From NCBI RefSeq assembly GCF_030384885.1, contig NZ_CP128613.1: DNA of 64,000 bases; one strand, written 5' to 3'. The position numbers and the translations under genes were made by a program. Below are positions 36,929 to 37,140 of this stretch, in pieces. The notes beneath the pieces are model-generated. The model ran no database searches. It had not been told where the DNA came from and saw only the letters and a program-made list of their open reading frames with translations. Origin of the DNA: Escherichia coli (GTDB lineage Bacteria; Pseudomonadota; Gammaproteobacteria; Enterobacterales; Enterobacteriaceae). Numbering within the stretch: the stretch's first letter is position 1; each line of letters opens with the position of its first letter.

Positions 36929-37140
36929 AAAAAAAGCGGGCCAGCAAACTGACCCGCTCGAGACTGATTACAAACGCAAAATTGCCTGATGCGCTACGCT
37001 TATCAGGCCTACATAATCTCTGCAATCTATTGAATTTGCATGTTTTTGTAGGCTGGATAAGGCGTTCACGCCGCATCCGGCATGAACAAAGCGCACTATG
37101 TCAACAATCTGAAGCGGGCCAACTGACCCGCTCGTTTTGG
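36929..37140. repeat. BIME: two inverted REP units flanked by two near-identical stem-loops
   Basis: REP units GCCTGATGCGCTACGCTTATCAGGCCTAC and GTAGGCTGGATAAGGCGTTCACGCCGCATCCGGCA; flanking repeats AGCGGGCCAGCAAACTGACCCGCTCG and AGCGGGCCAACTGACCCGCTCG. Confidence 0.6.

Follow-up and report, generated by a model that had tools for sequence, protein, structure and literature searches.

This analysis concerns the spacer between the convergent genes uspB and pitA of Escherichia coli, as it occurs in a stretch of 64,000 nucleotides of RefSeq contig NZ_CP128613.1 (hereafter the window), which was assigned to E. coli by its 99.6-99.8% identity to E. coli chromosomes. In this spacer, two direct copies of one hairpin flank a complete unit of a bacterial interspersed mosaic element (BIME) of type 1, which contains two repetitive extragenic palindromic (REP) sequences. 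Alleles with and without the BIME-1 are called filled and empty, respectively. With a probability of about 0.85, an old integration of BIME-1 into a terminator shared by the two genes duplicated the terminator hairpin and split it into crossed half-terminators, an arrangement that reverts by precise deletion. In this process, one complete 151-bp BIME-1 would have integrated into a single bidirectional uspB-pitA terminator consisting of A-tract, hairpin and T-tract, and a target duplication comprising the entire hairpin would have resulted. This would have split the bidirectional terminator into a left half-terminator with the A-tract, serving pitA, and a right half-terminator with the T-tract, serving uspB, and precise deletion between the two hairpin copies would restore the ancestral terminator. 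We infer that the duplication was made by the insertion reaction itself and that the deletion runs through the repeats.

The duplicated hairpin and the BIME-free allele

The hairpin AAGCGGGCCAG(CAAA)CTGACCCGCTCG was detected by a repeat finder in two direct copies of 27 nt and 23 nt (copies L and R), which flank the 151-bp BIME-1 within the 244-bp spacer separating uspB and pitA. In copy L, the stem at 36935-36944 pairs with 36949-36958 around the loop CAAA, and a C.A mismatch on the plus strand becomes a G.U pair on the pitA strand. Copy R, aligned as AAGCGGGCCA----ACTGACCCGCTCG, shows the same C.A asymmetry and differs from copy L solely by the loss of the four loop nucleotides. An earlier note on this DNA, made from the sequence alone, had described two direct hairpin copies around two inverted REPs; the repeat finder and the window sequence agreed with this description, except that the note gave a loop difference of 3 nt instead of 4 nt and that the insert, besides the two REPs, comprises a complete BIME-1. 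When the hairpin and its flanks were used as a query, one place per E. coli genome was found, with two copies in the window, which ruled out the ubiquitous repeat that the note had also considered. The gapped hairpin pattern gave 0 matches in 100 dinucleotide-preserving shuffles of the window, the pattern itself matching copy L alone. A 14-nt similarity between GCATAAAAAAAGCG and GCATGAACAAAGCG was rejected as a chance match, since the second copy belongs to a conserved BIME-1 end motif.

The two REPs of the unit (36983-37012 and 37048-37082), which we take to be of the Y and Z1 types, are inverted, with their CTAC/GTAG tetranucleotides pointing inward. They are separated by a long L linker with a site resembling the consensus for integration host factor (IHF), and together with this linker form a single extragenic unit. 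At its ends, the unit carries terminal inverted repeats that match imperfectly (AGACTGATTACA against AGATTGTTGACA as reverse complement, 9/12 positions). A paralog of the entire 151 bp, end motifs included, fills the entD-fepA spacer of every E. coli genome at approximately 90% identity and is devoid of the uspB-pitA hairpin. Also, the unit boundaries AGACTGATGAC...CAACAATCTG were identical at at least 10 unrelated sites, and the linker motif CTGCAATNTATTGAATTNGCA was found at 24 distinct genomic sites in a metagenome scan. In the literature, BIME-1 is described as a single-copy element of approximately 140 bp with Y and Z1 REPs, a long L linker with an IHF site and strain-variable presence (PMC3333891). 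The features of the spacer and its two genes are as follows.

36929-36935, minus strand: A7 tract (U7 on the pitA strand), U-tract of the canonical pitA terminator (sequence, terminator scan, SEnd-seq end at ~36930)
36934-36960, no strand assigned: hairpin copy L, AAGCGGGCCAGCAAACTGACCCGCTCG, 27 nt, left copy of the putative target duplication and sole copy in empty alleles
36961-37111, no strand assigned: complete BIME-1, 151 bp (~90% paralog in entD-fepA; boundaries recurring elsewhere; architecture as in PMC3333891)
36961-36982: BIME-1 left end motif, 22 nt
36983-37012: Y REP
37013-37047: L linker, 35 nt
37023-37035, minus strand: IHF-consensus-like site ATTCAATAGATTG in the L linker, predicted by sequence (12/13 matches to WATCAANNNNTTR)
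37048-37082: inverted Z1 REP
37083-37111: BIME-1 right end motif, 29 nt
37112-37134, no strand assigned: hairpin copy R, AAGCGGGCCAACTGACCCGCTCG, 23 nt, right copy of the putative target duplication
37135-37138, plus strand: T4 tract, U-tract of the canonical uspB terminator (terminator scan, Term-seq end at ~37137, SEnd-seq end at ~37139)
36570-36905, plus strand: uspB coding sequence, 111 amino acids (list of open reading frames; RefSeq annotation of identical loci)
37150-38649, minus strand: pitA coding sequence, 499 amino acids (same sources)

A terminator scan called copy L on the minus strand only, with an 11-bp stem followed by T7, and copy R on the plus strand only, with a 6-bp stem followed by CGTTTTGG (U-tract CGUUUUGG). 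On the pitA strand, copy L was predicted to fold with -19.6 kcal/mol (z -4.1) and copy R with approximately -16.8 kcal/mol, the latter without a U-tract; the predicted fold of copy R on the uspB strand was weak (z approximately -0.2). A GC-rich stem-loop followed by a U-tract, i.e. an intrinsic terminator, was present for L on the minus strand and for R on the plus strand, and for neither copy on the opposite strand. The left copy is a canonical terminator for pitA only and the right copy for uspB only. Since the A-tract was kept by the left copy alone and the T-tract by the right copy alone, the canonical terminator of each gene lies beyond the BIME. The A7 tract is the left half and the T4 tract the right half of an ancestral bidirectional terminator.

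For the comparison of alleles, 501 bp around the spacer were aligned by megablast with 5,426 complete E. coli genomes. The full-length, filled allele was present in 1,939 of these (approximately 36%). Among the remaining genomes (approximately 64%), all of the 25 sampled rows aligned as two segments over 327 bp, which makes their allele shorter by exactly 174 bp. The empty alleles read GCATAAAAAAAGCGGGCCAGTAAACTGACCCGCTCGTTTTGGTG (also given as GCATAAAAAAAGCGGGCCAGTAAACTGACCCGCTCGTTTTGG), with a single hairpin between the A-tract (left) and the T-tract (right), and are classical bidirectional intrinsic terminators. Adding one BIME-1 and a second hairpin copy to the empty allele gives the filled allele; with one tract per hairpin copy, the latter lacks the two-sided tracts that make the terminators of the empty allele and of other Enterobacteriaceae bidirectional.

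The ancestral state was investigated in UspB loci from one genome per species. In nearly all genera with pitA following uspB, including Citrobacter, Klebsiella, Kluyvera, Kosakonia, Lelliottia and Salmonella, a single block of A-tract, hairpin and T-tract was observed between the stop codons of the two genes. In 26 distinct sequences, the stem was paired in 92% of cells, one stem pair covaried (G-C in 17 and A-U in 8 sequences) and the C.A mismatch on the uspB strand, equal to G.U on the pitA strand, was conserved. The single hairpin across the Enterobacteriaceae indicates that the one-hairpin state is ancestral and the two-hairpin state derived, and the single hairpin of BIME-free alleles indicates that the duplication is an insertion footprint. 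The suspicion voiced in the earlier note, that the duplication was left by REP/BIME insertion, was in agreement with these results: the junction of strains without the BIME, which it had proposed to compare, showed a single hairpin between A-tract and T-tract, and exactly one hairpin was likewise found in the other genera.

Some further observations were made on the unit and on related spacers. The Rfam family ES036 (CssrF 'sRNA') matched the minus strand at 37005-37045, i.e. the BIME-1 L linker, with 42 bits against a gathering threshold of 37.6 bits, indicating that this family corresponds to a piece of a dispersed repeat; it was the sole match above threshold in the spacer, those to naRNA4 and L20-leader being below threshold. 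Other REP-like sequences of the window, i.e. an inverted pair at 1616-1707, a single REP at 35643-35657 in the uspA-dtpB spacer and a Y-core at 47518-47528 on the minus strand, carried no BIME-1 end motifs. The filled alleles of strains 6817 and OkiPb01689 showed a 1-nt insertion and a substitution in the Y REP stem (TATCAGGATCTAC / TATCAGTATCTAC) at 37006-37008, a variant that breaks the REP palindrome. In five Citrobacter and Salmonella alleles, unrelated REPs were located directly after the conserved uspB hairpin, without hairpin duplication, and the T-tract of the hairpin had been lost. In six loci from Raoultella, Enterobacter and Leclercia, uspB was followed not by pitA, but by another gene and another terminator hairpin.

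Other BIME-1 sites and the origin of the duplication

At 23 usable BIME-1 sites, the best direct repeat between the 45 nt on the left and the 45 nt on the right of the unit was determined. Mismatched left/right flank pairs served as the null (n=506) and gave a mean of 6.2, a 99th percentile of 10 and a maximum of 13. Eight of the 23 independent sites scored 11-19, five of them above the null maximum. At all eight sites, the repeat was a GC-rich hairpin located 0-3 nt from the unit, 19-28 nt in length and tracking the size of the local hairpin, while the hairpin sequence differed at every site. The stems of paired copies were near-identical and the loops had diverged; at metE-ysgA, the closing pair was compensatory (T.A versus C.G).

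The direct repeat was single at the empty site of four loci, i.e. uspB-pitA, yacH-lpdA, metE-ysgA and mog-satP. The yacH-lpdA spacer was filled in 494 E. coli genomes, and its empty K-12 allele reads AAAAAAAGCGGCGTGGTTAGCCGCTTTTTT. At metE-ysgA, all sampled E. coli alleles were BIME-free, the K-12 type having a single CCGGGTGGTAATACCACCCGG, and the filled form was obtained from a metagenome contig. The mog-satP spacer is empty in K-12, where its hairpin is a bidirectional site in SEnd-seq data, and filled in contig L104. In the filled alleles of yacH-lpdA, metE-ysgA and mog-satP, the A-rich flank stayed with the left copy and the T-rich flank with the right one, so that crossed half-terminators are a regular outcome.

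Three of the other spacers were less readily compared. At chbG-katE, the BIME-free allele (strain AMSCJX04, L225 300-460) has another hairpin, AAGGTCACTCCCCAGGGGACGTGACCTT, than the one duplicated in 1,931 genomes, and this spacer has been replaced, not just filled or emptied. The uvrB-ybhK spacer was too divergent for megablast pairing and cysM-yfeS showed a larger indel. At one metagenome BIME-1 site (L111), the duplication comprised approximately 38 nt, i.e. the hairpin, a T-tract and CGCCAAAAGCA, and the left end of the unit was truncated. The duplicated tail resembles the BIME-1 end motif CAAACGCAAAA, which suggests a microhomology-mediated variant.

Any mechanism has to account for unit ends that are fixed at many sites and for a duplication that comprises the local hairpin in full, irrespective of hairpin length. 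In the simplest scheme, a palindromic target would present its hairpin identically on the two strands, in a cruciform or at a replication fork. Each strand might then be cut at the equivalent foot of the hairpin, giving staggered cuts; the symmetrical REP doublet would be joined to these ends, and fill-in of the two single-stranded hairpins would duplicate them. The same C.A stem asymmetry in both copies indicates direct duplication and not snap-back synthesis; an origin by snap-back or loop insertion was ruled out, as the copies kept the C.A mismatch instead of becoming perfect palindromes. The REP-associated Y1 transposase, which cuts single-stranded DNA beside hairpins, an activity known in vitro only, is the obvious candidate enzyme. 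That BIME-1, as a REPIN (a REP doublet forming hairpins), integrates in a structure-directed manner, i.e. by targeting extruded or single-stranded terminator hairpins whose strands are cut at opposite feet and whose repair duplicates the hairpin, is put forward tentatively, at somewhat less than even odds.

The main alternative for the origin of the duplication is template switching during replication, in which a fork stalls at the terminator palindrome and the nascent strand copies a BIME-1 located elsewhere, returns upstream and re-copies the hairpin. Palindromes are known to obstruct forks and to be hot spots of template switching, and this origin would explain a duplicated length that tracks hairpin size instead of a fixed stagger; also, both junctions show possible microhomology of 1-3 nt (TCG and A) to the entD-fepA copy. 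We nevertheless consider it unlikely, because the precise ends at at least 10 unrelated sites are those of a defined mobile unit and not of random switch points, and because the duplication abuts the unit ends within 0-3 nt at eight sites. It is above all the constant unit ends that argue against template switching.

Age of the insertion and transcript ends in K-12

The filled allele was also found in Escherichia albertii NBRC 107761, where the BIME differs from that of the window at approximately 10 of 151 positions, and in the clade-I-like Escherichia sp. MOD1-EC7003, which was sister to E. coli in neighbour-joining trees of the flanking 3 kb. Four representatives of cryptic-clade Escherichia were empty. 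Within E. coli, filled and empty alleles were interspersed in these trees, and single-nucleotide polymorphisms 12-16 bp from the hairpin defined three haplotypes, each of which occurred in both the filled and the empty state. The filled window and the empty strain FDAARGOS_1370 differed at one site over 1,150 bp (36378-37528), and no difference was seen between MG1655 (filled) and LP5-1 (empty) over 36803-37234. The BIMEs of these two haplotype groups, the window type and the K-12 type, differed from each other by a 1-nt indel as well as at positions 37054 and 37122. The simplest reading of these sequences is that the insertion is older than the diversification of E. coli and that precise loss of the BIME together with one hairpin gave rise to the E. 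coli empty alleles on at least two occasions.

In every sampled filled allele of E. coli, the loop of the right copy was wholly lost. A loop-less empty allele, which resolution in the 5′ arm would be expected to produce, was not found among the 5,426 genomes, all empty alleles keeping the loop of the left copy, and this absence neither proves nor disproves deletion. In E. albertii, the right copy was of full length, with a TTTA loop that exactly inverts the TAAA of the left copy and is one step away from TTTC, the loop of other genera. In that spacer (L005 2845-3085), the stems are direct copies, and the right loop was inverted or diverged independently of the stem.

It is rather improbable that the E. 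coli empty alleles are themselves ancestral and never carried a BIME, the filled allele having entered once, for instance out of a different Escherichia lineage, and spread by homologous recombination without recurrent deletion. Recombination is frequent in E. coli, all sampled cryptic-clade Escherichia were empty, and every empty allele had an intact TAAA/AAAA loop, with no loop-less deletion product. The flanks, however, did not split filled from empty alleles, as is seen from the three haplotypes occurring in both states and from the single differing site in 1,150 bp between the filled window and the empty FDAARGOS_1370. Also, the two filled types differed inside the BIME in step with their flanks, and the filled state was shared by the clade-I-like outgroup and E. 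albertii.

For transcript 3′ ends, published data from K-12 MG1655 were mapped onto the window. MG1655 carries the filled allele, with pitA at 3637642-3639141 (plus strand) and uspB at 3639385-3639720 (minus strand). On the minus strand, Term-seq (Adams et al. 2021, supplementary file 1) placed a 3′ end at 3639154, for which 130,524 reads were obtained in LB medium at an optical density (OD) of 2.0 and 25,150 reads in M63 medium; it was missing from the list for LB at OD 0.4. The position corresponds to the third U in CGUUUUGG, past the distal hairpin R (window ~37137). Among the curated Term-seq ends of the uspB strand in three conditions, none was located at the proximal hairpin L. The pattern fits a stationary-phase uspB transcript that passes through hairpin L and the BIME. 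A bicyclomycin-sensitive Term-seq site at 3638792 on the minus strand, antisense within pitA (Rho score 3.5; window ~37499; Adams et al. 2021), is a Rho-dependent backstop for transcripts that pass hairpin R.

Both hairpins were likewise listed, each in stationary phase, among the overlapping bidirectional termination sites determined by SEnd-seq (table reproduced by Harris et al. 2026, supplement of bioRxiv 10.64898/2026.03.23.713779), hairpin L as row 284 (3639328-3639360) and hairpin R as row 371 (3639152-3639183). These rows were read as overlaps of convergent 3′ ends. On this reading, the distal SEnd-seq ends, like the Term-seq end, fell within the U-tracts, for pitA at 3639360 (window ~36930) and for uspB at 3639152 (window ~37139). 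The proximal ends were located 3-5 nt beyond the hairpins that are devoid of a U-tract:

~36962, plus strand: uspB-strand end past proximal hairpin L, no U-tract (K-12 3639328, SEnd-seq row 284)
~37108, minus strand: pitA-strand end past proximal hairpin R, no U-tract (K-12 3639183, SEnd-seq row 371)

Crossed termination is therefore real, and for uspB it is dominant in Term-seq. The prediction of the earlier note that each transcript would read through the REP pair and terminate at the distal hairpin was correct with regard to the distal ends (Term-seq for uspB, SEnd-seq for both genes); read-through is, however, not the sole fate, as the ends at 3639328 and 3639183 indicate. The proximal ends possibly arise by polymerase collision, as has been proposed for such sites. 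The Rho-binding table of Harris et al. had no entry for the REPs of this spacer. The filled allele gives the two messages approximately 210 nt of mutually complementary 3′ untranslated region (UTR) with two REP stem-loops, compared with an overlap of approximately 35 nt in the empty allele.

That nothing is crossed, each gene stopping at its nearest hairpin with the BIME as an almost untranscribed spacer and the distal ends as minor read-through, is decidedly improbable. The two proximal ends implied by the SEnd-seq overlaps would suit such an arrangement, and under the collision model, convergent transcription can end at hairpins that lack U-tracts. The uspB end at the distal U-tract was, however, recovered with 130,524 Term-seq reads and no proximal end in any of the three conditions, the proximal hairpins are without U-tracts, and both distal ends were obtained by SEnd-seq as well.

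A further Term-seq 3′ end of the uspB strand was present at MG1655 3639733 (minus strand; window ~36557), with 109,975 reads in LB at OD 2.0 and 42,672 reads in M63. It is located 13 nt upstream of the uspB start codon, in a very GC-rich leader at 36500-36569 (GGTAGCCCCGGGGTGGAACTCCGCGGGCAGGTCGCCGGGGAGGAGG), and may represent an attenuator or a processed leader RNA.

Several observations weigh against an old integration that duplicated the hairpin, crossed the two half-terminators and reverts by deletion. Fifteen of the 23 BIME-1 sites were without a duplication, and several had a hairpin on one side only; at rhlE-ybiA, the hairpin was on the left side and the alternative allele carried an island. 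The duplicated length varied from 19 to 28 nt over the eight sites and does not have the fixed length of a transposase target-site duplication; being variable and hairpin-sized, it was not filed as a conventional one. No target duplication is left by enzymes of the IS200/IS605 type, to which the REP-associated transposase is related, and we infer the integration enzymology, no transposition event having been observed. The absence of a loop-less product in 5,426 genomes is not predicted by simple slippage. In K-12, SEnd-seq ends at the proximal hairpins showed that the crossing is not absolute, and Term-seq listed no pitA-strand end anywhere in the uspB-pitA spacer.

Relation to known elements and significance

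The element itself, its IHF site and its presence/absence polymorphism are already known, as are both K-12 hairpins from a terminator catalogue. With BIME-1 as previously described (RIP and RIB elements), the unit of the uspB-pitA spacer shares the Y and inverted Z1 REPs, the L linker with an IHF-type site, the single copy, the extragenic location, a size of approximately 140-150 bp and the strain-variable presence. The view that both hairpins are an extra palindromic unit of the repeat family, suggested by their position at the unit ends and their REP-like GC-rich palindromes, can be dismissed, since the hairpin is locus-specific, occurs at one place per genome, is single in BIME-free alleles and BIME-less genera, and is missing from the entD-fepA copy.

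REPINs and their REP-associated transposase (RAYT or TnpA_REP, a Y1 HUH enzyme related to that of IS200/IS605) have in common with BIME-1 the inverted REP doublet as the presumed mobile unit. RAYT / TnpA_REP cuts single-stranded DNA next to hairpins, and excision events of REPINs are known in Pseudomonas. For E. coli, Bachellier and colleagues are said to have mentioned 'excisions of a whole BIME-1' in 1997. The IS200/IS605 mechanism produces no target duplication, whereas uspB-pitA and other BIME-1 sites showed a duplication with the extent of the target hairpin (19-28 nt). Miniature inverted-repeat transposable elements (MITEs) and DDE transposons share with BIME-1 a short non-coding unit, terminal inverted repeats and direct repeats that are single at the empty site. 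Their target-site duplications, however, usually measure 2-14 bp, while that of BIME-1 is far longer, variable and coincides with an element of secondary structure. Spacer integration by Cas1-Cas2 into CRISPR arrays offers an analogy only, in that the insert likewise comes to lie between two copies of a palindromic repeat of approximately 20-30 bp. Cas1-Cas2 attacks the strands at opposite repeat borders, assisted in E. coli by IHF. The uspB-pitA spacer, in contrast, has no array, leader or cas genes and its insert is a fixed repeat unit, so that any mechanistic likeness is speculation.

REPs 'inserted within small target palindromes' have been reported from Thermomicrobium, Anabaena and Halothiobacillus (Di Nocera et al. 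2013). These share a palindromic target with BIME-1, but there the element lies between the arms of one palindrome, whereas BIME-1 has a whole hairpin on each side in direct orientation. A/T runs also flank Pseudomonas REPINs, for which the published interpretation is co-option for termination. With respect to bidirectional terminators (Ju et al. 2019, SEnd-seq; collision model of Wang et al.), a textbook arrangement of A-tract, hairpin and T-tract is seen in the empty allele and both K-12 hairpins are listed; the hairpins of the filled allele differ in that their U-tracts serve one direction each, that they are 174 bp apart with the BIME between them and that the canonical sites are crossed. 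The published BIME/REPIN literature that was searched made no mention of a flanking duplicated target hairpin or of a preference for bidirectional terminators; Bachellier 1997 and Gilson 1991 were outside this search and an earlier description is possible.

The uspB-pitA locus is an ordinary BIME-1 insertion polymorphism with a well-defined effect on termination. What is new for this known element is the duplication of hairpin size, which was replicated at other loci. The mechanism of REP/BIME insertion is still called unknown in recent papers. The hairpin-sized footprint constrains this integration and points to cleavage at the hairpin feet on both strands. The question of how REPs and BIMEs move has been open since the 1980s and, to our knowledge, no transposition in vivo has been seen and no footprint recognised. 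If integration is indeed structure-directed, the duplicated hairpin would be the first in vivo signature of REP/BIME insertion, and BIME-1 would systematically turn bidirectional terminators between convergent genes into crossed pairs with long antisense 3′ UTR overlaps, reversibly by precise excision. Annotation pipelines and terminator catalogues should expect paired half-terminators around BIME-1. REP stem-loops are known stabilisers and attenuators in 3′ UTRs. At uspB-pitA, the polymorphism constitutes a natural on/off switch, with a compact bidirectional terminator as one state and, as the other, a crossed form with an antisense 3′ UTR overlap of approximately 210 nt, REP stem-loops and an IHF-like site; since 36% of E. 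coli carry the filled allele, strain differences in uspB or pitA expression or mRNA stability can be examined directly.

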